DNA of 64,000 nt from contig JAKEER010000295.1 in the NCBI GenBank assembly GCA_022616615.1, positions 9,768 to 73,767 of the forward strand, read 5' to 3'. The position numbers were made by a program, and so were the translations under genes. The notes beneath the pieces were generated by a model. The model was not told the origin of the DNA and did not search any database. It was given only the letters and a program-made list of their open reading frames with translations. This DNA is from Acidobacteriota bacterium (GTDB taxonomy: Bacteria; Acidobacteriota; Terriglobia; Versatilivoradales; Versatilivoraceae). This document shows, piece after piece, positions 1 through 12,020 of the stretch (the stretch's first letter is position 1; every line of letters starts with the position of its first letter).

Positions 1-132
1 AACCTCCACCCCATCATGGGGCAGACACCCCTGGTCATGTTTTATCCGGGTCGTTACGACGGCCAGTCGGTGCGGCTATTTGGAAAGCTGAAACAGAACA
101 ACTACTACCGGGCCTTCAACCTCATTCCGTAA
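1..132 (+). CDS. brxB: BREX protein BrxB (DUF1788), C-terminal end only (5' partial)
   Basis: Frame 1 reads ...TPLVMFYPGRYDGQSVRLFGKLKQNNYYRAFNLIP*. This C-terminal signature and the position directly upstream of brxC fit DUF1788/BrxB. Confidence 0.7.
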   Translation, partial: NLHPIMGQTPLVMFYPGRYDGQSVRLFGKLKQNNYYRAFNLIP

Positions 133-146
133 GAGGAGAGCCAGGC

Positions 147-3100
147 ATGCTGATCCAGAACCTTTTTGAGCGAAATATCCATCGCCCCATCAACGGGGTC
201 GTCAAGGCCGATCAACTCGACGATTCCTCCGTCTGGCAGGAGCTGGACGAGTTTGTCGTCACTCGCGAACTGGACCAACATCTCCGCCGGTTCTTCTCCG
301 CTTACACCGACGCCATCAGCCAGAAGAAAGACCCCGATGTGGCAAGCAAGATTGGCGTCTGGGTTTCCGGTTTCTTTGGATCAGGCAAATCGCACTTCAT
401 CAAAGTTCTTTCCTACCTGCTTCGTAACCACGAGCATTCCCATGAGGGCCAGACCAAGAGAGCTACTGAATTTTTTCAAAGCAAGATCCAAGACGCCATG
501 CTGTTTGGCGACATTCAGCGATCTGTCGCATCAAATACGGATGTCATTCTATTCAATATCGACAGCAAGGCCGACAGTCGCGCTGGACGGGACGCCATTC
601 TCCAAGTCTTCTTGAAGGTCTTGAATGAAATGCAGGGCTACAGCGGCGATCATCCGCACATCGCTCACATGGAACGCTATCTGGAGAGCAAGGGAAAGCT
701 GCAACAGTTTCACGAGGCGTACGAGGCGGCGACAGGCGCCGGCTGGCACACCGAGCGCGACGCCTATCAGTTCAACCGGGACGAAGTCGTCAAGGCGCTC
801 ACCGGCACCCTCAACCTCAGCAAAGAATCAGCGGACAAGTGGATTGATGGGGCCGAAACCAGCTTTGCCCTTACTATTGAGAACCTCTGCAAGTGGGTTA
901 AAGACTACCTGGACTCCAAAGGTCCGGATCATCGCCTGCTGTTTCTGGTCGATGAAGTCGGTCAGTTTATTGGCACTGATTCCCATCTCATGCTCAATCT
1001 GCAAACAATCACTGAAGAATTGGGAACGATCTGCCAAGGCCGCGCCTGGGTCGTCGTCACTTCGCAAGAAGACATCGATTCTGTCCTGGGTGAGATGAAG
1101 CAAAGCCGCGCCAACGATTTTTCCAAGATCCAGGGCCGATTCAGAACTCGTCTCTCGCTGTCCAGTGCCAACGTCGATGAAGTCATTCAATCCCGGCTGC
1201 TGGCCAAGCACCAGGAAGTGGAGGAGGAGCTTCGAGACATTTTCAAGACCAAAGGCGACATCCTTAAAAACCACCTCACCTTCACCCAATGCGGGATGAC
1301 GCTCAAGCCCTATAAGGACCGCGACGACTTCGTTAGGAACTACCCCTTCGCTCCTTACCAGTTTCAGCTCGTACAAAAAATCTTCGAAGCCATTCGACGG
1401 GCCGGAGCCACCGGTCTGCACCTGTCCCGTGGAGAACGTTCCGTCCTCGATGCTTTTCAGTCGGCAGGCAAGCAAGTCGCACTCAACGAAATCGGGATTC
1501 TTGTCCCGCTCTATCGATTCTACCCATCCATTGAGAGCTTCCTCGACACTGCGGTCAAACGCACCATCGACCAAGCCAGAGTCAATGCCAGCCTGGAGGA
1601 CTTTGACATCCACCTTCTCCAAGTTCTTTTCCTCATTCGATACGTCGATGAAATGAAAGGCAACGTCGATAACCTGGTCACCCTTTGCCTCGACCAGATC
1701 GATGCCGACCGGCTGGCACTGCGGCGCAAGATCGAAGCTAGTCTTGGACGGCTGGAGAAAGAAACGCTCATCAGTCGCAATGGCGATATCTATTTCTTTC
1801 TCACCAACGAAGAAAGAGACATCGGCCGGGAGATCAAGTCGGTTGAGATCAACTCTGGTGAAGAGCCAAAGCTCCTGGGTGAACTCATCTTCACTGAAGT
1901 CTTGAAAGATCAACGAAAGTACCGCTACCCCGTCAACAAGATGGATTTCGCATTCAACCGCGTCTGCGACCTTTACACAGTTGGCAATCGGTCAGACGGG
2001 GCTCTCCAAGTCTCGGTCGTCACGCCTTTGAATGATGACTACGACTACTACGACAAAGGGAAACGTATTCTCGAAAGTGGCGCGGAAGGTGGGCAAGTCC
2101 TCTTCAAGTTGGGCAATGACGACAAGCTAAGCCGCGAACTGCGGATCTATCTGCAAACCGACAAATACGTCAAGCATAAGAGCGATGGCACTCAGGCAGA
2201 ATCAACCAAAAAGATTCTCAGGGGAATCGCTGAAGACAATCAGGAACGGCGCGGCCGGCTCGTCACCTTGCTAGACGAGCTGTTAGCGAGTTCGGAAGCC
2301 TACGCGGCCAGCCAGCAGCTCAAACTGAAGTCCACGGGCTCCATCACGTCGCTCCACGAATCATTGGAATATCTCGTTCGAAACACTTTCAACAAGATGG
2401 GTTATCTCAAGAAGATCCATCCCGATCCTCTTCCGGAGATCCAGGCCATCCTTCGCAGCAATGATATCGCTCAAGAGACGTTGGACTTGGACATGGAGGA
2501 TGGAAACAAGCAAGCTGTGGATTACCTCCGCAATTATGTCGAACTCTGCTCGGCCACGAGCAAGCAAGTTGTGCTGTACGACCTCATCGACAAAAAGTTC
2601 TCCCTGCGGCCTTACGGCTGGCCTGAAAACGAAGTGCTTGTCATCGTGGCTCGTCTTCTGGTTCTGGGGCAAATCAGCCTCATGATGGATGGTGCCCTCA
2701 TTCCGCTCGACAAGGTCTACGAAGCCATCACCTCACCCGCCAAGCAGCGCAAGATTCTCCTCATCAAACGGCAGACTTCCGATCCAGCGGCTGTGCAGAA
2801 AGCCCGAAGCCTGGGGAAGGAGCTGTTTCATGAAATGGGACCAGACGGTGAAGACCCACTCTTCACGCATTTGCAGATAAAACTCAAAGGCTGGCAGTCC
2901 TCCCTCAACACTTACAAGCCTCTGGCCGACACTGGCGACTACCCGGGCAAAGCGGAGATCGATGATGGACTAGTCCTGATCAAGAAGCTGCTCAGCGACA
3001 CCAGCAGCTTCAAGTTCATCGAACGCTTCAACACATTGAAAGACGACCTGCTGGAATTCGCTGGTCATTTCCAGGATCTGGAGCAGTTCTACGAACACCA

Positions 3101-3740
3101 GAAGCCCTCCTGGGAGAAACTTCGGAAGGCGCATAGCCAGTTCCAGCTCAACCGAATGGAACTGGACCGCGATGGTAAGGCAGGCCCTCCTTTCAGGCGC
3201 ATTGAGCAGATACTTGACGCCAAGAGTCCCTATGCATTGATCCATGAGGGAGAGAAACTGATTAACTCTGTGGCTGGAGTCAACACGGCACTGCTCACCG
3301 AACGCCGCAATCAGGTTGACGAAAGGATCAACGGCTACGTGGCCACTCTCAGCAAAGACATCGCTGCGGCCAACGGCGACGAGAACCTTCGCGTGGCCTG
3401 CCTCCGCCAGTTGGAGTCAGTCCGCCAGCAGATCGCTTCAGAAAACAGCCTGGCCCACATCACCCAAGCGGAAGGCGAGGCTCTCAAGGAATTCGATTTG
3501 GCTGTGGCTCGGATTGAGGTATTCGCCAAGAATGCTGCCGAGAAGGAGACGATCAAAGATCCATCGAAAGACCCGCACAAGCCAACGTCAGCCATCAAGA
3601 AGCAGCGGATTGTCGAACCCGCCAAGCTGGTCAAGACGATCTATCTCGAAACGACAGAGGACGTAGCTGGCTTTCTTGATGATTTACGGCAGGAGCTTGA
3701 AACGGGCATCAACAACAACGAACGCATTCAGATCCGCTGA
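147..3740 (+). CDS. brxC: BREX system P-loop ATPase BrxC (DUF499 family), apparently intact
   Basis: 1197-aa ORF. The N-terminus MLIQNLFERNIHRPINGVVKADQ and Walker A GFFGSGKSHFIKVL are typical of BrxC/PglY. Size and position in the brxB-brxC-pglX-pglZ-brxL order fit. Confidence 0.85.
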   Translation: MLIQNLFERNIHRPINGVVKADQLDDSSVWQELDEFVVTRELDQHLRRFFSAYTDAISQKKDPDVASKIGVWVSGFFGSGKSHFIKVLSYLLRNHEHSHEGQTKRATEFFQSKIQDAMLFGDIQRSVASNTDVILFNIDSKADSRAGRDAILQVFLKVLNEMQGYSGDHPHIAHMERYLESKGKLQQFHEAYEAATGAGWHTERDAYQFNRDEVVKALTGTLNLSKESADKWIDGAETSFALTIENLCKWVKDYLDSKGPDHRLLFLVDEVGQFIGTDSHLMLNLQTITEELGTICQGRAWVVVTSQEDIDSVLGEMKQSRANDFSKIQGRFRTRLSLSSANVDEVIQSRLLAKHQEVEEELRDIFKTKGDILKNHLTFTQCGMTLKPYKDRDDFVRNYPFAPYQFQLVQKIFEAIRRAGATGLHLSRGERSVLDAFQSAGKQVALNEIGILVPLYRFYPSIESFLDTAVKRTIDQARVNASLEDFDIHLLQVLFLIRYVDEMKGNVDNLVTLCLDQIDADRLALRRKIEASLGRLEKETLISRNGDIYFFLTNEERDIGREIKSVEINSGEEPKLLGELIFTEVLKDQRKYRYPVNKMDFAFNRVCDLYTVGNRSDGALQVSVVTPLNDDYDYYDKGKRILESGAEGGQVLFKLGNDDKLSRELRIYLQTDKYVKHKSDGTQAESTKKILRGIAEDNQERRGRLVTLLDELLASSEAYAASQQLKLKSTGSITSLHESLEYLVRNTFNKMGYLKKIHPDPLPEIQAILRSNDIAQETLDLDMEDGNKQAVDYLRNYVELCSATSKQVVLYDLIDKKFSLRPYGWPENEVLVIVARLLVLGQISLMMDGALIPLDKVYEAITSPAKQRKILLIKRQTSDPAAVQKARSLGKELFHEMGPDGEDPLFTHLQIKLKGWQSSLNTYKPLADTGDYPGKAEIDDGLVLIKKLLSDTSSFKFIERFNTLKDDLLEFAGHFQDLEQFYEHQKPSWEKLRKAHSQFQLNRMELDRDGKAGPPFRRIEQILDAKSPYALIHEGEKLINSVAGVNTALLTERRNQVDERINGYVATLSKDIAAANGDENLRVACLRQLESVRQQIASENSLAHITQAEGEALKEFDLAVARIEVFAKNAAEKETIKDPSKDPHKPTSAIKKQRIVEPAKLVKTIYLETTEDVAGFLDDLRQELETGINNNERIQIR

Positions 3741-3746
3741 AATGCT

Positions 3747-3888
3747 AACCACGGATTTCACCGATGACACTGATCAAAGCAGGAAAAGCCAGATCACGTG
3801 AGGTTAATCAAGCGAATTGCGGAGGCGCACAAAACGGTTGAGTTTTTCCACCTCAGGTTCCATCTGTGTTATCCGTGTCATCCGTGGT
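3747..3888. repeat. Inverted pair of CACGGAT-word repeats (R1 3747-3779 forward, R2 3864-3888 reverse) in the brxC/GxxExxY junction
   Basis: R1 is aaccacggatttcaccgatgacactgatcaaag. R2 is ctgtgttatccgtgtcatccgtggt, the reverse complement of accacggatgacacggataacacag. The arms are separated by ~85 nt. Confidence 0.85.
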
Positions 3889-3891
3889 CGA

Positions 3892-4278
3892 GTGAATTCA
3901 GTGATTGCCAAAGAGTTGATCCACAAGGAACTGAGCGAGTCGATCATCGGAGCGGCGATGACGGTTCTGAACACGTTGAAGCCAGGCTTGGATGAAAAGC
4001 TCTATGAGAAAGGATTGGTCATCGAGCTTCGCAAACGGAATCATCAGGTGGAGCAACAGCGGCAGTTTCCGGTGCGCTATGAGGGTCAACTGATCGGAAC
4101 ACTCACCCCAGACTTGATTGTTGACGGCCTGGTGATTGTAGATACCAAGGTTGTCACGGCATTCAACGAAACCCACATGGCGCAGATGTTGGGTTACCTG
4201 AACATCACCGGATTGCGCTTAGCATTATTGCTGAACTTCAAGAACGCCAAGTTGGAATGGAAGCGAGTGGTCCGCTAA
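3892..4278 (+). CDS. GxxExxY protein (PD-(D/E)XK nuclease-fold family)
   Basis: ELSESIIGAAMTVLNTLKPGLDEKLYEKGLVIEL contains the G-x-x-E-x-x-Y motif (GLDEKLY). D...DTK and LLLNF...EWKRV are typical of the family. The start is taken at GTG 3892, after repeat R2; the longer ORF from 3817 translates the repeat. Confidence 0.8.
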   Translation: MNSVIAKELIHKELSESIIGAAMTVLNTLKPGLDEKLYEKGLVIELRKRNHQVEQQRQFPVRYEGQLIGTLTPDLIVDGLVIVDTKVVTAFNETHMAQMLGYLNITGLRLALLLNFKNAKLEWKRVVR

Positions 4279-4498
4279 CCACGGATTACACGGATGACAC
4301 GGATAAAGGCTGAAGATCAGATTGTGCGAAACTGATTTCAACCTGCATTTACTATTCAGGTTTTAGGCTGCTATCTGTTGAACAACCTGGATCGTTATTG
4401 GTTTGAAGGCTGACGAACATCCTTGTCGTCCACAGGTCTGTGACTCGTGGCCGATTATCGCAATGCTTTAATCGGTGTTATCCGTGTCATCCGTGGTT
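4277..4498. repeat. Inverted pair of CACGGAT-word repeats (R3 4277-4309 forward, R4 4473-4498 reverse) in the GxxExxY/pglX junction
   Basis: R3 is aaccacggattacacggatgacacggataaagg and overlaps the GxxExxY stop codon. R4 is cggtgttatccgtgtcatccgtggtt. A ~160-nt spacer lies between them. Confidence 0.9.
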
Positions 4499-4512
4499 GT
4501 CTTTTGCTTTAT

Positions 4513-5186
4513 ATGAATCGCACCAAGCTCAAGAACTACGCTACCCAGGCACGTCGCGACTTCATCCAGGCCGTCACAGATCGTGCGGCCTACCACGGCC
4601 TCACCGCCAAGAAGGTGGAGCCTGTTACCCAGAAGGGTGACGTGGCCATCATCGAGGGCACGGCGTTTCCCCGGAGCGCCGTCCGGAAACGGAAGCGGCT
4701 GGAAGAACGGATCAGCCAGCATGGCTTTCAGCAGACGATGGAAGCGATGGCCTATACCTGGCCACAGGGTTGTACAAAGACCACCTGCAAACTTACAAGA
4801 AGCGCCCCATCTACTGGCTGTTTTCAAGCGGCAAACAGAGGGCGTTCCAGTGCCTTGTCTATCTCCACCGCTACCACGAAGGCACCCTGGCACGAATGCG
4901 CACGGAATACGTGATTCCCCTTCAGGGCAAGATCGCAGCCCGTCTTGAGCATCTAGCGCGTGATATTGCAGGAGCGGCCTCGACGACTCTCCGTCGAAAA
5001 CTGGAGAAGGAACGTGACGCGCTTCTAAAACATCAGAACGAACTACGCACGTTCGACGAAAAACTGCGCCACTACGCCGACCAGCGCATCAGCCTGGACC
5101 TCGATGATGGTGTGAAGGTGAACTACGGCAAGTTCGGCGACCTCCTGGCTGAAGTTAAAGCCATAACCGGAGGAAGCGACGACTAA
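4513..5186 (+). pseudogene. pglX: pglX (BREX adenine methyltransferase) remnant: N-terminal ~83 codons fused out of frame to C-terminal ~135 codons, methyltransferase core missing
   Basis: 4513-4761 encodes MNRTKLKNYATQARRDFIQAVTDRAAYHGL...MEAMAYTW, a PglX N-terminus. 4770-5186, in another frame, encodes ...KKRPIYWLFSSGKQRAFQCLVYLHRYHEGTLARMRTEYV...DLDDGVKVNYGKF, a PglX C-terminus. Intact PglX proteins are roughly 1100-1250 aa. Confidence 0.8.
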
Positions 5187-5203
5187 CTTCAGCCAAGAGG
5201 CTT

Positions 5204-5291
5204 GACCACGGATCACACGGATGGCACGGATAGTGCAGGTGCAAGACAAGGAATTGGATTTCTATCGGTGTCATCCATGTGATCCGTGGTT
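5204..5291. repeat. Inverted pair of CACGGAT-word repeats (R5 5204-5233, R6 5262-5291), hairpin with 28-nt loop
   Basis: R5 is gaccacggatcacacggatggcacggatag. R6 is ctatcggtgtcatccatgtgatccgtggtt. 26 of 30 positions are complementary. Confidence 0.9.
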
Positions 5292-5335
5292 CAATAACCG
5301 TCGTTGAATCGCTTGTAAGGAAGGAGTAACTCCAT

Positions 5336-5569
5336 ATGTCTTCGAACGTCACGTTGCAGGAAGCCCAGGCCCACTTGGCTGAGCTGATCGCCAAACTGGC
5401 CCCTGGTGAGGAAGTCGTCATCCTCCAAAATGACCAACCCATAGCGAAGCTCGTAGGCGAACCCGCGGCGATCCGTCAACCCCGGCAACCGGGCAGCGCC
5501 AAAGGCAGGCTAACGATCTTGGCAAACGATGACGACCATCTGGATGACTTCAAAGAGTACATGCAATGA
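5336..5569 (+). CDS. Type II antitoxin, Phd/YefM (prevent-host-death) family
   Basis: 77 aa. MSSNVTLQEAQAHLAELIAKLAPGEEVVILQNDQPIAKLV is a typical Phd/YefM-like N-terminus. The ATGA overlap with the downstream PIN gene indicates translational coupling. Confidence 0.75.
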   Translation: MSSNVTLQEAQAHLAELIAKLAPGEEVVILQNDQPIAKLVGEPAAIRQPRQPGSAKGRLTILANDDDHLDDFKEYMQ

Positions 5570-5952
5570 GGCTGCTGCTCGACACGCATACGTTCTTGTG
5601 GTTTCTGCTGAATGACGCGCAATTGACTGAAACCGCAAGGAGCTTGATTGCCGATTCCGGCAACGACATTGAGATCAGCCCGGCCAGCATCTGGGAGATT
5701 GCCATCAAGATCAGCTTGGGCAAGTACGCGCTAACCGAACCGCTCGAAGCGTTCATGGAACGCGAGATGACGGCAAACGGATTCCGCCTTTTGGCGCTTG
5801 AGATCAAGCACATCTCGGTGGTCACGACGCTGCCGTTCCATCACCGCGATCCCTTCGACAGATTGTTGGTGGCACAGGCCATCGCCGAGCAGATCCCAAT
5901 CATCAGCGGAGACCAGATGCTGGATGCCTACCCCGTGCAGCGGCTGTGGTAA
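5566..5952 (+). CDS. vapC: Type II toxin VapC (PIN-domain ribonuclease)
   Basis: 128 aa. LLLDTHTFLWF...SPASIWEIAIKISLGK...HHRDPFDRLLVAQA carries the PIN acidic residues and typical VapC motifs. Confidence 0.8.
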   Translation: MRLLLDTHTFLWFLLNDAQLTETARSLIADSGNDIEISPASIWEIAIKISLGKYALTEPLEAFMEREMTANGFRLLALEIKHISVVTTLPFHHRDPFDRLLVAQAIAEQIPIISGDQMLDAYPVQRLW

Positions 5953-5959
5953 GGATTTT

Positions 5960-6122
5960 GATCACGGATAGCACGGACAACACGTGTGAAGTAAGCCTTG
6001 ACACCATGAAGAATGTAGCCCCAGTGACTTTATTTTATGGCAAGGTCCCCTGTTGATGATGCCAGTAACGACCCGAGTTGGGACCAAGTCTCTTATCAGT
6101 GTTATCCGTGTCATCAGTGGTT
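5960..6122. repeat. Inverted pair of CACGGAT-word repeats (R7 5960-5984, R8 6097-6122) in the vapC/pglZ junction
   Basis: R7 is gatcacggatagcacggacaacacg. R8 is cagtgttatccgtgtcatcagtggtt. This pair is a more degenerate copy of the same family. Confidence 0.8.
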
Positions 6123-6133
6123 GAGAACTGCTA

Positions 6134-8777
6134 ATGGATTCCAAGCAAATCAACGACGCGCTGGACCGCGTCTTTAACCAGGAGGCAGAACGGATCGTCT
6201 TCTGGAACGATCCTGATGCTGAGTTCCGGGAGTTCGTGGACCGTCTCCCCATTCTCACGTTCGGCAGCGTGAGCGTGAACATTCTGCGTCTGGACCAGAC
6301 CAGCGCCCTTGAGGCCAAGATCCGGTTGGAACAGGAAGCTCCAGATCATCGCTTCTTGGTCTACTCGCCAACGGAAGAGCCTGACTACGAGAAGGACTGG
6401 TTGCTGGACATCCGCCTCTTCAGCCGCAGCTTTCGTGCTGACAAAGCTTCAATCGTGCTCGACGAGCTTGGCCTGACAAACCAACACCTTCGGCTACACC
6501 TGGCCGAACGGCGCAAGTTCTTCGACAACAAGGAGCGCCTTCAGAAGATGAAGTCCCTGGTCGCGGCAGACGACGCCGCTGCCGATCTGGACCAGAAGAT
6601 GATCGCGGTGGTCGCTAAGGCGGAGCAGCCTGAGTTCTTCAACATCATCCGCACACTATTCCACACTTTCGCCGAAACAGCCCAGGGCATTGACTTGGAT
6701 ACTCCGCCTACGGTCTGGGAGCAGGTTGAGAGATTTGATTTAGCCGAGCCCTTCTGGCAGATGGTGAGAACTTGCATTCGGTTATTCGGAACAAGACCCG
6801 AACCTGAAGAACTTCCTCATTCAACTGTTTGTTACCGATTTTGCTCAGCAGTTAAAGACAGGGTTGCCACCCGCTCTTCAGCATCTTCAATTGCCCTCGG
6901 GAGGCCGGGCGAACGCCGTTGTCTGCCTGGCTCAGTGGCGCGACAGTAGCAGCAAGGGAAGCAGCTATGATCGTCTTTCCGCCTTGGTTGCTGCCCTGAT
7001 CAAGCTCTGGGATTGCCTCGGTTCCACTGAGATGGGTGGTCTGATTGACGTGATGACGTTCCGGATTGTGGACCAGAAAATTGCCAACACCTTGTGCGAG
7101 CGAGTGAAGAACACGGCAGACACGATCAATGCGGATGAGGTCCGTGCCATCGCGACCCGCCGACAAGCAGGCCATTGGGCTTCACTAAGCGTTTCCGGAG
7201 CGCCCGAGGTTCTTCGAAAGCCACTCCATGCGGTTTTCGATGCGTTGGTGGCTGCCAGCGAGTTCTTTGCCTTGCGGAACCAACACCAGAGCAGCTTCGA
7301 TTTTGCTGATGCCGCTGGGCTGTATCGCGCCTATGAGAAGGAACTCTACCGCTACGACCAGTTGTATCGGCATTTCTGCGAGTCCGCCGATGATGCCGAG
7401 GCGGAGGGCTGGGATGTTCTCAAGTCTCTGCGCGAGTCTTTGGAAGCCTGTTATGCCAACTGGTATCTCCCTACGCTTGGCCTGAGTTGGGGCAAGTTTG
7501 TCGAACCAGCAAGCCAACTCCCCTTGTTGACCCATTGGCGGATTGATGAAGTTCCCAGCCAGCAGCAGTTCTTCGAAGAGCACGTTCGGAGACGATTGGA
7601 AGAAGCCGAGAACCGCAAGGTTTACGTCATTATCAGCGATGCTTTCCGCTATGAAGCAGCCGAGGAGCTGAGCCGCGAACTCAACGGCAAGTATCGCTTT
7701 GAAGCCAGCCTCACATCTCAACTGGGGGTGCTGCCTTCTTATACCGCTTTGGGGATGGCCAGTTTACTGCCCCACAAGAAGTTGGCCTACAAGGCCAATG
7801 GTGAGGTTCTCGTGGACGATTTGCCCACCGTTACGCTTGAGGACCGGAACGATATCCTTGCTGCGAGAAGCGGAATGACTTGCAAGCCTACGGATTTGAC
7901 GGAGAGAAAGAAGGACGAAGGAAGAGAGTTCGTCAGTGGAAAACGAGTGGTTTACATCTACCACAACACGATTGACGCCACGGGTGAATCGAACATCACT
8001 GAGGGACGAACTTTTCATGCAGTGCGAACGGCGATTAATGAGCTGGCCTCCCTGGTGAGTTACATCATCAACAACCTGAACGGCAACTTCATTCTGATCA
8101 CGGCAGATCATGGGTTCCTTTTCACTGAGACAACTCCCGGTGAGCCTGAGAAGAGCAAAGTTCAGCAGAAGCCGGAAGGCACCGTCCAATTAAAGAAGCG
8201 ATATCTGATCGGGCAGGATCTTCCCGACCATGAATCGGTTTGGCACGGCAGGACTTCAATCACAGCAGAGGCCGAGGGAGATATGGAGTTTTGGATTCCC
8301 AAGGCAGCCAATCGGTTCCATTTCCTTGGTGGAGGACGCTTTATCCACGGTGGCGCGATGCCGCAAGAGACTGTCGTTCCGCTCATTACGGTGAGGCACG
8401 TCAAAGGGAAGTCTATTAAGGACACCACTACCAAGTTTGTCACGGTCCATGTGCTGGGAAGCAGCCACAAGATCACGACGAACCGGCACCGATTTGAATT
8501 GATTCAGATGGAGCCAGTAACCGAGCGGGTCAAACCGGTGACCCTCAAGGTAGCCATCTACGAAGGCGATGAGCCCGTGACCAACATCGAAGCCGTGACC
8601 TTCGATAGTGCCTCAGACAAGATGGAGGACCGGAGAAAGTGGGTTCCTTTGGTCTTGCGGGATCGGCAGTACAACAAGAAGACCTCCTACTATCTGATTT
8701 TGCGAGACTCCAAAACCAACCTCGAACAACAGCGGGTTGAAGTGACAATTGACAAGGCATTCAGCGATGACTTCTGA
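6134..8777 (+). pseudogene. pglZ: pglZ (BREX alkaline-phosphatase-fold protein) with a single frameshift near 6765
   Basis: The N-terminal ORF (6134-, frame 2) reads to ...LAEPFWQMV. Homology continues in frame 3 from 6768 as ELAFGYSEQDPNLKNFLIQLFVTDFAQQL...AQWRDSS...ITADHGFLF (PglZ domain). A frame-3 stop TGA lies at 6765-6767. Confidence 0.75.
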
Positions 8778-9145
8778 CACCGACAAACTGCAATTCAATC
8801 TGGACGATCTGCTGAACCGGCACTTTGCCGGCCGGGTGGTTCGCAAGGATCTGACCAAACTGGTGAAGGAAGGCGCCAACGTTCCAGTGTACGTGCTGGA
8901 ATATCTGTTGGGATCGTACTGCGCCTCAAACGATGAGGCGGTCATCGAGGACGGTCTCAAGACGGTGAAAAAGATCCTCGCGGAAAACTACGTCCGGCCC
9001 GACGAGGCCGAAAAAGTGAAATCGACGATTCGGGAGCGCGGCAGCCTGAAGGTGATCGACAAGATTTCCGTAACACTTAATGAAAAAAGGGATGTCTACG
9101 AGGCCCTGCTTGCAAACCTGGGAGTGAAAGGCGTGGAAGTGACCA
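8767..9145 (+). pseudogene. brxL: brxL (BREX Lon-like protease) 5' remnant, about 125 of about 680 codons
   Basis: MTSDTDKLQFNLDDLLNRHFAGRVVRKDLTKLVKEGANVPVYVLEYLLGSYCASNDEAVIEDGL...VRPDEAEKVKS...VIDKISVTLNEKRDVYEALLANLGVKGVEV matches the BrxL N-terminus. The ATG overlaps the pglZ end. After ~9145 the ORF continues to 9672 in unrelated low-complexity sequence. Confidence 0.75.
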
Positions 9146-9149
9146 GTAG

Positions 9150-9309
9150 CACCTCTGCAGCACTTCGAGCACCGGCGGCAGGACTTCATAATCGACTTCG
9201 ATCAAGTCGAGCGCCTCTTCGGCCAGATGTGAGCACGCTCTCTCCGCTGGTGCAGCAGAGCGACCGCCTCCTTCAAACTCTTGGGTGTGGCATAATCAAA
9301 GGCGCGCAA
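9150..9309 (-). pseudogene. Juxtaposed fragments of xanthine dehydrogenase/CO dehydrogenase family genes (FAD-subunit N-terminus plus a molybdopterin-subunit internal piece)
   Basis: The minus strand reads (TTG)RAFDYATPKSLKEAVALLHQ, like a CoxM/XdhB N-terminus. It then switches frame to AEEALDLIEVDYEVLPPVLEVLQ, like a CoxL/XdhA internal motif. Both pieces are far too short to be functional. Confidence 0.4.
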
Positions 9310-9578
9310 GAGGTTTCCTCACTTTCTTTTCGCTGTTTTTCGCTGTGTCTCGGAACAGTTCCAGCAGGATTTCTCCAGGCAGTTAGAATGAAATGGAGCG
9401 CTGGCGGCTGGCATCACAAGCGAAGCCCACGCGGCACGCAACGAGGATCACTGGGCGCTCCACAGGCCTGCAAAGGTACTCGGCCTCCCTCACTTCAGCC
9501 GCCGCCGGGGTCAGAAGGCCAGAAACTTGCTAGGTCGCTTGGCGCGATGAGATTCACAGTTCAGTCAAGTTCAGAAGA

Positions 9579-9653
9579 GTGGCAGCGGCATCCTGCCGCT
9601 GCCGGCCAGCGGCATCCTGCCGCTGCCGGCCAGCGGCTGGAAGCCGCTGCCAC
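9579..9653. repeat. Tandem 24-bp repeat (2.5 copies); each unit is a CAGCGGC/GCCGCTG hairpin, and the whole is bracketed by gtggcagcgg/ccgctgccac
   Basis: cagcggcatcctgccgctgccggc occurs at 9583-9606 and again at 9607-9630. A variant, cagcggctggaagccgctgcc, follows. Confidence 0.9.
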
Positions 9654-9820
9654 TTTAGCTGTCCTCGGCTGACCCAGCGGCCTGATCTCGCTGTAGCCCA
9701 GGAGTCAGCAAGGGCTGTACCTCGACACGATCACCTCGAGGGAGCCTTGCCTTTTTCCTAGACACTGTTGAATTGTTCATCTAAGATCTCGCCTGCTTTG
9801 CGCAGGAAGAAGTCAGCTTT

Positions 9821-9924
9821 CAGGTCTCGGGCTCCGTGCAATCTGAAACCGCAAACCCCGCCAGGTTCGGAAGAAAGCAACGGTAGTGGAGCTTCAGATG
9901 TGCCGCGGAATCACCCGGGGCCTG
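9821..9924 (+). ncRNA. ffs: Signal recognition particle RNA, small (4.5S) type
   Basis: GCCAGGUUCGGAAGAAAGCAACGG matches the conserved SRP domain IV (E. coli CAGGUCCGGAAGGAAGCAGCC), including the GGAA tetraloop. The closing helix caggtctcggg/cccggggcctg has 9 WC and 2 GU pairs, and there is an internal helix atctgaa/ttcagat. The position directly upstream of dnaX-ybaB-recR is a common synteny. Confidence 0.7.
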
Positions 9925-10046
9925 GCCAGATTTGGTGCTTATCGAAAAGAGCACTCTCTGAACAGACTGGGCAGGCCTTTTCTGGCGTCCGATCTCCTGA
10001 TCCTCGAAGAATCCGCATTTCCTGACCCGATTCCCAGCACATTGTC

Positions 10047-11693
10047 ATGAGCTATCAGGTGATTGCCCGCAAGTATCGTCCGCAGACCTTTGACGAGGTG
10101 GTGGGCCAGAATGCTGCGGCCCAGACGCTGCGCAACGCCATTCTGCAGAATCGCATCGCGCACGCGTATCTTTTCGCAGGCGCGCGCGGCGTCGGCAAGA
10201 CCTCCACGGCTCGCATCCTGGCCAAAGCGCTCAACTGTGCGCAAGGGACGACGGTGACGCCCTGCAACGAGTGCGCCTCCTGCGTCGAAATCACTGCCGG
10301 AAACTCGCTTGACGTCCTCGAGATCGATGCCGCTTCAAATCGCGGCATCGACGAGATCCGCGAGCTGCGAGAGAACGTGAAGTATGCCGCCGCGCGGGAC
10401 CGTTACAAGGTCTTCATCATCGACGAAGTGCACATGCTGACCACTGAGGCCTTCAATGCGCTGCTGAAGACGCTGGAAGAGCCACCCCCGCAGGTTGTGT
10501 TTATTCTAGCGACCACGGAGTTGCACAAGGTGCCGTCGACTATCTTGTCGCGCTGCCAGCATTTCAATTTCCGGGCCATCAGTTACCAGGAGGTTCTGGG
10601 GCAGTTGAAGAAGATCGCCGCTGAAGAGCGCATTCAGATCAGCGACGAAGCCCTGAATGCCATTGCCCGAGCCTCGGAAGGCAGCCTGCGGGATGCGCAA
10701 TCGCAGCTGGACCAAATCATCTCGTTCTGCGGTAGTGAAATTCGAGATGAGCAGGTTCGCGACCTGCTGGGGATTGTTCCCCAGCAGGTGCTGGACGATT
10801 TCACCGCAGCGCTCGTACAGCAGGATGCGCGGAAGGTTCTGGGGCTGGTCGATCATCTCGTGTCGAGCGGGCTGAACTTGCAACACTTTGTGCGAGAGAT
10901 GCTGGCGCACTTTAGAAACCTGCTGATGTTGAAGATTGCGGGCGAAGACCCGAAACTCATTCCGCTCGCGCCGGCAGAAATGAGCCGCGCCCGCGAGCTG
11001 GCGGCGCATTTTTCAGAAGAGGACCTGACGCGCTTTTTCAACATTCTGGTGTCGGCGGACGGAGAAATGCGCTGGTCGTCGCAGCCACGCTTTCATCTGG
11101 AGATGACGCTCACTCGAATTGTCCATGCGAAGCGGCTCGTCCCGATTGAAGAACTGATTGCTCAACTGGGCGGCGGGGGTCTGCCAGCGGCTGGAGATCC
11201 TCCGGCCAAAGGCTCTACGCAATTGCCTCAGGCTCCTGCAACTAGCCGTTTCACGGCGGCAGGGCCGGCCCGGTCCGTGTCTGAGACTATGTCTGCCTTA
11301 TCAGCGGCTACTGAGAGCAGTCTGGTCGAAGCGTTGAGCGCTGCCCTCGCCCAGCGTTCGCCGATGGTGTCTTCGCTGATGGAGCACGCGCGCGACATCC
11401 GGCAGACGGACGCGGGTCTTGAAATTGAGTTTGGAAAGCAAGACCGGTTTTCGCTTGACATGCTCCAGTCACCAGAAAACTTCAACTTGGTAAAGGAAGT
11501 GACAGATTCCATCGCTGGGAAGCCGCAAACTGTCAAGCTGCTGCTGGAGGCTGGCGCCGCAGGGGAAGCGATGCCTGTGCCTGCGCCGGACGAGAAAAGG
11601 GAGTTGCTGGAACGGGTGAAGGAAGATGCCGGTGTGAAAGCCTTTCTAGATACTTTTCATGCTGAGATCACGGATGTAAAGGATTTGAAGTAA
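10047..11693 (+). CDS. dnaX: DNA polymerase III subunit gamma/tau
   Basis: 548 aa. YRPQTFDEVVGQ, the Walker A GARGVGKTSTARILAK, the Zn module CNECASC, and DEVHML with SRCQHF are all present. Confidence 0.95.
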   Translation: MSYQVIARKYRPQTFDEVVGQNAAAQTLRNAILQNRIAHAYLFAGARGVGKTSTARILAKALNCAQGTTVTPCNECASCVEITAGNSLDVLEIDAASNRGIDEIRELRENVKYAAARDRYKVFIIDEVHMLTTEAFNALLKTLEEPPPQVVFILATTELHKVPSTILSRCQHFNFRAISYQEVLGQLKKIAAEERIQISDEALNAIARASEGSLRDAQSQLDQIISFCGSEIRDEQVRDLLGIVPQQVLDDFTAALVQQDARKVLGLVDHLVSSGLNLQHFVREMLAHFRNLLMLKIAGEDPKLIPLAPAEMSRARELAAHFSEEDLTRFFNILVSADGEMRWSSQPRFHLEMTLTRIVHAKRLVPIEELIAQLGGGGLPAAGDPPAKGSTQLPQAPATSRFTAAGPARSVSETMSALSAATESSLVEALSAALAQRSPMVSSLMEHARDIRQTDAGLEIEFGKQDRFSLDMLQSPENFNLVKEVTDSIAGKPQTVKLLLEAGAAGEAMPVPAPDEKRELLERVKEDAGVKAFLDTFHAEITDVKDLK

Positions 11694-11702
11694 GTCCTGG
11701 GG

Positions 11703-11719
11703 GCGGGCATCTTGCCCGC
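11703..11719 (+). terminator. Stem-loop just after the dnaX stop (possible terminator)
   Basis: gcgggca-tct-tgcccgc forms a 7-bp perfect stem followed by ttctt. The U-tract is weak. Confidence 0.35.
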
Positions 11720-11907
11720 TTCTTGCAGCCCTGAAGATTGGGCGTCTTTGTTCCGTTCCTCGGCTGAATAGGGGCGGGCGCTGTCACAGCCAGTATTGGG
11801 GTGATGCGACCGGAGGTTGCGAAAAGCTCCATTCGAGCAAGACGATTCCCGGATCATTCCTCAGACCACCCCTCGTGCCGCCACGCGACCGCCGTCGCTG
11901 CGCGGCA

Positions 11908-11933
11908 CTTCCCTCCTGATCTCAGGAGGGAAG
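11908..11933. repeat. Perfect 12-bp-arm palindrome cttccctcctga-tc-tcaggagggaag
   Basis: Read directly from the sequence. A related palindrome, cccctcctcatctgaggagggg, occurs at 58749-58770. Confidence 0.9.
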
Positions 11934-12020
11934 TCCGAAAAACGTCCAATCTGCAACGCAGTCTTCAGGCCTGCCGTTTCCTGGGGCCCTGCCGCCGGAT
12001 TGCGCGCGGGGACGCCCGCG

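Follow-up and report, generated by a model that had tools for sequence, protein, structure and literature searches.

A defense island in which several core genes are broken and one long gene is open raises a simple question: is the island decaying, or has it been put to another use? The window analyzed here is a stretch of 64,000 nucleotides (positions 9768-73767 of contig JAKEER010000295.1, hereafter C525) from an Acidobacteriota bacterium, and it opens inside a bacteriophage exclusion (BREX) island. The initial annotation described three damaged core genes in this island and posed decay and re-purposing around brxC and its passenger genes as alternatives. Our analysis indicates that the locus is very probably a horizontally acquired type 1 BREX island that is non-functional as BREX and is decaying. 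Decay is supported by reproducible disabling lesions, an empty site in genomes of the same genus and the recency of the damage, whereas re-purposing is not borne out. The genome is a 9.58-Mb bin of 918 contigs with 56% G+C, estimated to be 94% complete and 8% contaminated. Coordinates below refer to the window unless a contig is named.

The island reads brxA-brxB-brxC-[GxxExxY]-pglX'-[phd-vapC]-pglZ'-brxL' on a single strand. Hidden Markov model scans thus confirmed the canonical BREX-1 order of the core genes (A-B-C-X-Z-L) proposed before. We take the island to be type 1 on the definitions of the BREX types, which are reportedly due, in their first form, to Goldfarb and colleagues in 2015 in the EMBO J. 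It is located between a coxM-like gene and ffs-dnaX. The earlier span of 1-9320 covers the same locus, but the island begins about 1.2 kb upstream of the window start, and position 9320 falls inside a scar of cox sequence. The island now measures ~10.4 kb, and its original size was about 15 kb.

Three of the six core genes are intact. Both brxA and brxB cover their profiles in full. The 1197-residue brxC reported earlier as intact is indeed a single open frame with full profile coverage, and it encodes a P-loop ATPase with the Walker A motif GFFGSGKS at residues 75-82. BrxC differs at 3 of the 245 positions that are invariant in 21 relatives. The relatives themselves differ at 0-15, so the constraint on BrxC is neither extra nor reduced. 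Its closest relatives are mostly from planctomycete metagenome-assembled genomes (MAGs); by this single, horizontally mobile gene, the host would probably be placed among the planctomycetes. The best match among contigs of one genome per species has 75% identity. In one relative, brxC is interrupted by ~1.4 kb between alignment residues 200 and 173 (L018:10597-11982).

The other three genes carry lesions of different kinds, as the initial annotation had stated. The internal deletion in pglX leaves only the two ends of the gene. A tblastn search with intact PglX recovered residues 17-99 and 1077-1219 only. About 2.9 kb is missing, and with it ~975 codons that comprise the whole methyltransferase and target-recognition core, so that pglX no longer encodes an N6-adenine methyltransferase. 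The deletion is additionally out of frame. The N- and C-terminal pieces are in different frames, and the N-terminal frame is out of register beyond 4761 and meets a stop at 4914. The pieces overlap by TACCTGG (4755-4761), a 7-nt string with which the left piece ends and the right one begins and which marks the deletion joint. In a comparison with an intact relative (L025), both edges of the deletion could have carried TACCTGG. The deletion may have occurred by slippage or illegitimate recombination at this 7-nt microhomology.

In pglZ, the reported frameshift was located at about 6772-6776, with profile pieces in two frames. Where relatives encode M-V-K-A-S-F-G-Y, the window reads ATG GTG AGA ACT, then TGCA in place of one codon, then TTC GGT TAT. 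The frame shifts after codon 213, so the alkaline-phosphatase fold is not encoded in one open frame. The site is neither homopolymeric, slippery nor repetitive, which rules out a programmed frameshift or phase variation at this position. The 3' truncation of brxL leaves 136 codons of the N-terminal domain; the ATPase and the Lon-like C-terminal domain are missing. In tblastn searches with five intact BrxL proteins, similarity ends at nt 9153 and no continuation was found in any frame, which rules out that the gene resumes in another frame. The open reading frame (ORF) continues to 9672 through copied flanking cox sequence.

Published genetics indicate that such lesions are disabling, and the island is considered dead as BREX for this reason. 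The type 1 BREX of E. coli HS has the same six genes in the same order, brxA-brxB-brxC-pglX(brxX)-pglZ(brxZ)-brxL. There, methylation and protection both depend on brxX, brxB, brxC and brxZ, whereas brxL is required for protection alone; by such genetics, methylation calls for PglX, PglZ and BrxC, and exclusion for BrxL (Gordeeva et al., 2019, PMC6326788). Lesions like those found here are predicted from this work, and from that on StySA (PMC9009780), to abolish exclusion and the site-specific m6A methylation of a non-palindromic motif, and the island would neither methylate DNA nor exclude phage. It differs from its E. coli HS counterpart in its three naturally broken genes, in its two passenger units (at brxC|pglX and pglX|pglZ) and in its uncultured host.

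Alignment to related BREX-1 loci, a check suggested earlier, revealed that the broken genes are otherwise well conserved. When PglZ is read through the shift, 5 of the 135 invariant columns deviate, compared to 0-9 in intact relatives, and the frameshift is therefore recent. Its best match, among metagenome contigs, has 69% identity. Judged by the conservation of the broken genes outside their lesions, the decay is recent. By its distribution, the island is a horizontal acquisition. A match to BrxC is found in neither of two same-genus genomes and in 2 of 38 more distant relatives, both of them weak. Both same-genus genomes have coxM next to dnaX, at a distance of 565 bp in one and 1197 bp in the other, and thereby show the site empty.

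Two further BREX loci were found in the genome. One is a sister fossil on contig C549, located between housekeeping genes, where GxxExxY alone has stayed intact. It is also present in both close assemblies and in a third NCBI assembly. Between the GxxExxY genes of the window and of C549, dS is at least 1 and dN/dS is 0.04-0.07. The dS value indicates that the C549 gene is an old, separate copy. The other, on C370-C914 (L056, L057), is a divergent type 1 BREX that is complete in other assemblies (L147, L148). It contains brxA, brxB, brxC, a pglX whose two ORFs (694 and 624 aa) enclose a Fic gene, pglZ and brxL, followed by a long prokaryotic Argonaute of 1108-1122 aa (SLFN_AlbA_2 and Piwi). It adjoins TraG/ArdC/ParA-type conjugation genes and belongs to a conjugative-type element. 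Its proteins have ~27-45% identity to those of the island, and it was found in two other assemblies of the organism and in one Logan run. A second copy of the N-terminal half of pglX with Fic is located on C183. Elsewhere, a metagenome BREX locus (L084:160-950) has a brxC fragment and a C-terminal pglX stub ahead of an intact-looking pglZ and brxL, indicating that pglX loss recurs.

At least one lesion, most plausibly the 1-nt shift in pglZ, could be a sequencing or assembly artefact, the organism itself having an intact gene. The sequence comes from a fragmented metagenome bin, and all sequencing runs possibly come from one study and one platform. The concern had been raised earlier, and it was addressed by an exact-protein look-up in independent assemblies, then by contig comparison. 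The look-up with the 650-aa PglZ gene call returned no record, and that with the 271-aa fragment did. Two other MAG assemblies, GCA_022615935.1 and GCA_973798195.1, are identical to the window over 1-12000 apart from a single-nucleotide polymorphism (SNP) that lies in dnaX and an indel at 9699. The exact frameshifted 271-aa fragment is also present in Logan per-run contigs of three runs. These contigs carry the lesions and extend from 4074, 4277 and 6041 (SRR16971109, SRR16971108 and SRR16971104, respectively) to 9206. The first is 100% identical to the window, the second has 16 SNPs and the third 4 SNPs, both without gaps. The same base string thus appears in three MAG assemblies and in three per-run assemblies from another pipeline, and the gapless 16-SNP haplotype carries the lesions too. 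In addition, the pglZ site is not a homopolymer, and the lesions of pglX and brxL rearrange the DNA on a kilobase scale and have unique joints. The lesions are common to at least two haplotypes and are not assembly errors; an artefact in any one of them is very unlikely. That the locus is a phase-variable BREX in a reversible OFF state has even less to recommend it and is hardly credible. Phase variation of pglX by a G tract is documented for Streptomyces Pgl (PMC4365076), and a 1-nt frameshift is revertible in principle. However, the pglZ site has no simple repeat, and the locus has neither a recombinase nor a duplicated pglX cassette. The 2.9-kb deletion and the brxL truncation are irreversible, which effectively refutes this explanation.

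The intact half of the island invites another explanation, that brxA-brxB-brxC, possibly along with the GxxExxY nuclease and VapBC, is selected as a working module, alone or in trans to the second BREX. All three genes are full length, the Walker A motif is intact, invariant positions show no excess of changes, and intact brxC is also found in the other assemblies. Sub-complexes of PglZ-BrxB and of BrxC are reported in the literature. However, the probability that three lesions all fall in 8.3 of 13.1 kb by chance is (8.3/13.1)^3, or ~0.25. An intact A-B-C is expected in about 1 of 4 cases and therefore says nothing for selection. Copies of brxA, brxB and brxC are part of the second BREX, whose divergence from the island makes cross-complementation unlikely. 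In E. coli, brxA, brxB or brxC alone gave no protection (PMC6326788), and all that the older C549 fossil keeps of brxC is a frameshifted tail. We consider a working module quite improbable. The re-purposing suggested initially fares no better, as the constraint on BrxC is ordinary and the passengers predate the damage.

Several points weigh against the view that the island is a dead BREX in decay. The complete BREX is assigned to the same cell by co-binning in a 918-contig bin with 8% contamination, although it also occurs in two other assemblies. A minority intact allele may still exist at the locus, and the three runs are probably from one study. The best matches of BrxC (75%) and PglZ (69%) are not near-identical; since there is no near-identical intact relative, the ancestor of the pglX joint, and with it the microhomology, is inferred only. 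Finally, with only three lesions, a toxicity-driven pattern is indistinguishable from chance (P ~0.25). As a separate observation, 14 of the 16 SNPs in the SRR16971108 haplotype (L142), most of them synonymous, are located within 250 bp at the pglZ-brxL boundary (8659-8908). From their clustering, they look like a recombination tract imported from a functional allele.

Features of the BREX island, its flanks and the C549 fossil. Profile matches are given as positions matched/profile length.
Feature	Position	Strand	Evidence and remarks
cox left-hand copy	C525:8326-8539		counterpart of the right-hand copy
brxA	C525:8698-9327		upstream of window; Pfam BrxA (PF08849) 2-183/184
brxB, 3' end	1-132	+	full gene C525:9324-9899; Pfam BrxB (PF08747) 2-124/124
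brxC, intact, 1197 aa	147-3740	+	PADLOC BrxC 1-1189/1190; Pfam BrxC domains
Junction hairpin 1	3748-3888	.	inverted pair; 27-nt arm of three 9-nt CACGGAT units; RNA fold z-score -3.9
GxxExxY, PD-(D/E)XK-fold passenger, intact	3901-4278	+	PF13366 1e-35; TIGR04256
Junction hairpin 2	4277-4498	.	34-nt arms
pglX N-terminal remnant, 83 codons	4513-4761	+	PADLOC PglX 1-87/1174; ends ...MEAMAYTW
pglX C-terminal remnant, ~143 codons	about 4755-5186	+	PADLOC PglX 1043-1171/1174; starts ...YLATGLYKDHL...
Junction hairpin 3	5205-5290	.	29-nt arms, 90% complementary; RNA fold z-score -8.3
phd/vapB-type antitoxin, intact	5336-5569	+	PF02604 below cut-off (28.5 vs 29.8 bits); NF050009 weak
vapC, PIN-domain toxin, intact	5566-5952	+	PF01850 2e-12; usual acidic residues in translation
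Junction hairpin 4	5958-6121	.	left arm degenerate; right arm 6095-6121
pglZ, first 213 codons	6134-6772	+	PADLOC PglZ 1-236/855; frame continues to stop at 6949
pglZ frameshift site	6773-6776	+	TGCA in place of one codon in relatives; 1 extra base
pglZ, remaining 666 codons	6777-8777	+	+1 frame, includes PglZ domain; PADLOC PglZ 238-854/855; PF08665
brxL remnant, N-terminal part	8767-9153	+	PF20442; PADLOC BrxL 5-125/680; residues 1-136 of ~690-aa BrxL
coxL filler, 80 bp	9155-9234	+	97.5% identity; copy of C525:6595-6674, internal to resident coxL-like gene; abuts brxL break
cox right-hand copy, coxM 5' end and upstream region	9233-9452	+	82-86% identity to left-hand copy
ffs, signal recognition particle RNA	9825-9923	+	native right flank; Rfam RF00169, 69.6 bits
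dnaX	10047-11693	+	native right flank; Pfam
C549 fossil	C549:12776-14404 (L002:4777-6405)		brxC tail frameshifted, GxxExxY intact, phd and vapC frameshifted, no pglX

The borders of the island suggest how it entered. On the left, upstream of brxA, a coxL/S/M-like molybdenum hydroxylase operon is located on the opposite strand; on the right, the signal recognition particle RNA is followed by dnaX-ybaB-recR. No integrase or recombinase was found among the profile-scanned ORFs of the window and the upstream region, so the island does not appear as an integrase-borne one, and no tRNA was found at its borders. The only feature found there is a pair of 214-bp imperfect direct repeats of the target region, which bracket the island, the left copy directly before brxA. 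The two copies resemble each other more than they resemble the same-genus sequences. The island may have entered by Campbell-type insertion through homology in the coxM region. The 3' part of brxL would have been deleted later and the break patched with the 80-bp filler from the nearby coxL. We also considered that the right-hand cox fragments are the remnant of a single old second cox operon. This is unlikely, as the identity of the coxL piece (97.5%) differs from that of the coxM/intergenic piece (82-86%). About 55 nt upstream of coxM (GGCGCTGGCGGCTGGCATCA.AAGCGAAGCCCACGCGGCACGCAACGAGGATCAC; 9400-9452 and C525:8480-8539) are kept in both copies and in the two same-genus genomes. By this conservation, they may have a regulatory role for the cox operon. 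A GC-rich short repeat at 9553-9665 (GGCAGCGGCATCCTGCCGCTGCCGGCCAGC...) is present on dozens of contigs of this genome.

The small genes inserted in the island had been reported as open, and GxxExxY, phd and vapC are all intact. The genes phd and vapC overlap by ATGA (5566-5569), consistent with a putative VapBC type II gene pair, and phd is the conserved partner of the PIN gene in relatives. All four gaps from brxC to pglZ hold an inverted pair of the 27-nt arm of three 9-nt CACGGAT units, and these pairs fold strongly (z-scores of -3.9 and -8.3 for hairpins 1 and 3). Elsewhere in the genome, the hairpin arm is found only on C549. The GxxExxY gene, with its PF13366/TIGR04256 match and inverted arms of short tandem units, belongs with the GxxExxY/PDDEXK_3 hairpin genes. 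It shares with them the arms of 9-nt units and the presence of gene-bearing and gene-less copies; particular to this locus is a hairpin at every junction from brxC to pglZ. Similar arms occur in related BREX loci. Intact relatives carry passengers at the same junctions, GxxExxY at brxC|pglX in L003 and phd-vapC at pglX|pglZ in L008, L019 and L076, and the passengers and hairpins therefore predate the damage. In two planctomycete relatives (L005:8900-8990 and L008:14560-14650), a CACGGAT-type hairpin lies in frame inside an open pglX and is translated as ...TTDNTEDTD...SVSSVKSVV.... These in-frame hairpins resemble the Rickettsia palindromic elements inside genes.

The positions of the hairpins led us to a speculative and on balance unlikely proposal, that these elements with GxxExxY-type arms of 9-nt units could serve as recombination boundaries, across which whole BREX genes are gained or lost as cassettes. 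The C549 fossil lacks pglX exactly between two arms of the same orientation. At three informative sites, its surviving arm after GxxExxY seems to combine the window arms at 4278 and 5205. This hybrid appearance suggests that pglX of C549 may have been lost by arm-arm recombination. The hairpins of relatives likewise occupy both junctions of pglX, with brxC and with pglZ, and some even lie in frame within pglX itself. If the proposal holds, a small nuclease-linked hairpin element would shape the modular make-up of a major defense system.

Why the damage falls in the X-Z-L half of the decaying island may be explained by the toxicity of partial BREX sets. When expressed alone in E. coli, brxL has a strong toxic effect and brxX a mild one, whereas brxA, brxB, brxC and brxZ are harmless, and deletion of brxZ or brxL provokes secondary inactivating mutations (PMC6326788). 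The X-Z-L half may have been damaged because partial sets are harmful there, and the harmless brxA, brxB and brxC would simply not have been hit yet. The genes that were physically removed are the harmful ones, which suggests that selection helped the decay. The second, complete BREX in the genome may also have relaxed selection on the island.

Two known systems offer parallels. In StySA of Salmonella LT2 laboratory lineages, BREX-1 is inactivated through the core genes brxC and pglZ, passengers encoding an ATPase and a DUF4435 protein are located between pglX and pglZ, and toxicity can arise in partial genotypes (Zaworski et al., 2022, PMC9009780). The StySA lesions are point mutations from laboratory mutagenesis, whereas the island, in which brxC is intact, was damaged naturally by a 2.9-kb deletion, a frameshift and a truncation that is joined to filler DNA. 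In the Pgl system of Streptomyces coelicolor, PglX and PglZ depend on each other in a toxin-antitoxin-like manner, and a pglZ null is tolerated only with pglX off (Hoskisson et al., 2015, PMC4365076). This dependence provides a reason why the loss of one core gene leads to the loss of others. Unlike the island, Pgl belongs to type 2: it has PglW but lacks BrxL, and its pglX is switched through a reversible G tract instead of a deletion.

Defense systems are believed to come and go rapidly, but few natural cases trace the loss in detail. The genome described here holds three stages together: a complete BREX on a conjugative-type element, a half-dead island and a nearly erased fossil. That the genes physically lost from the island are those reported as harmful in the absence of their partners fits the idea that selection against toxic partial sets contributes to the decay of multi-gene defense. 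The island is a worked example of ordinary defense-gene decay, unusually well documented, and not a new kind of system.

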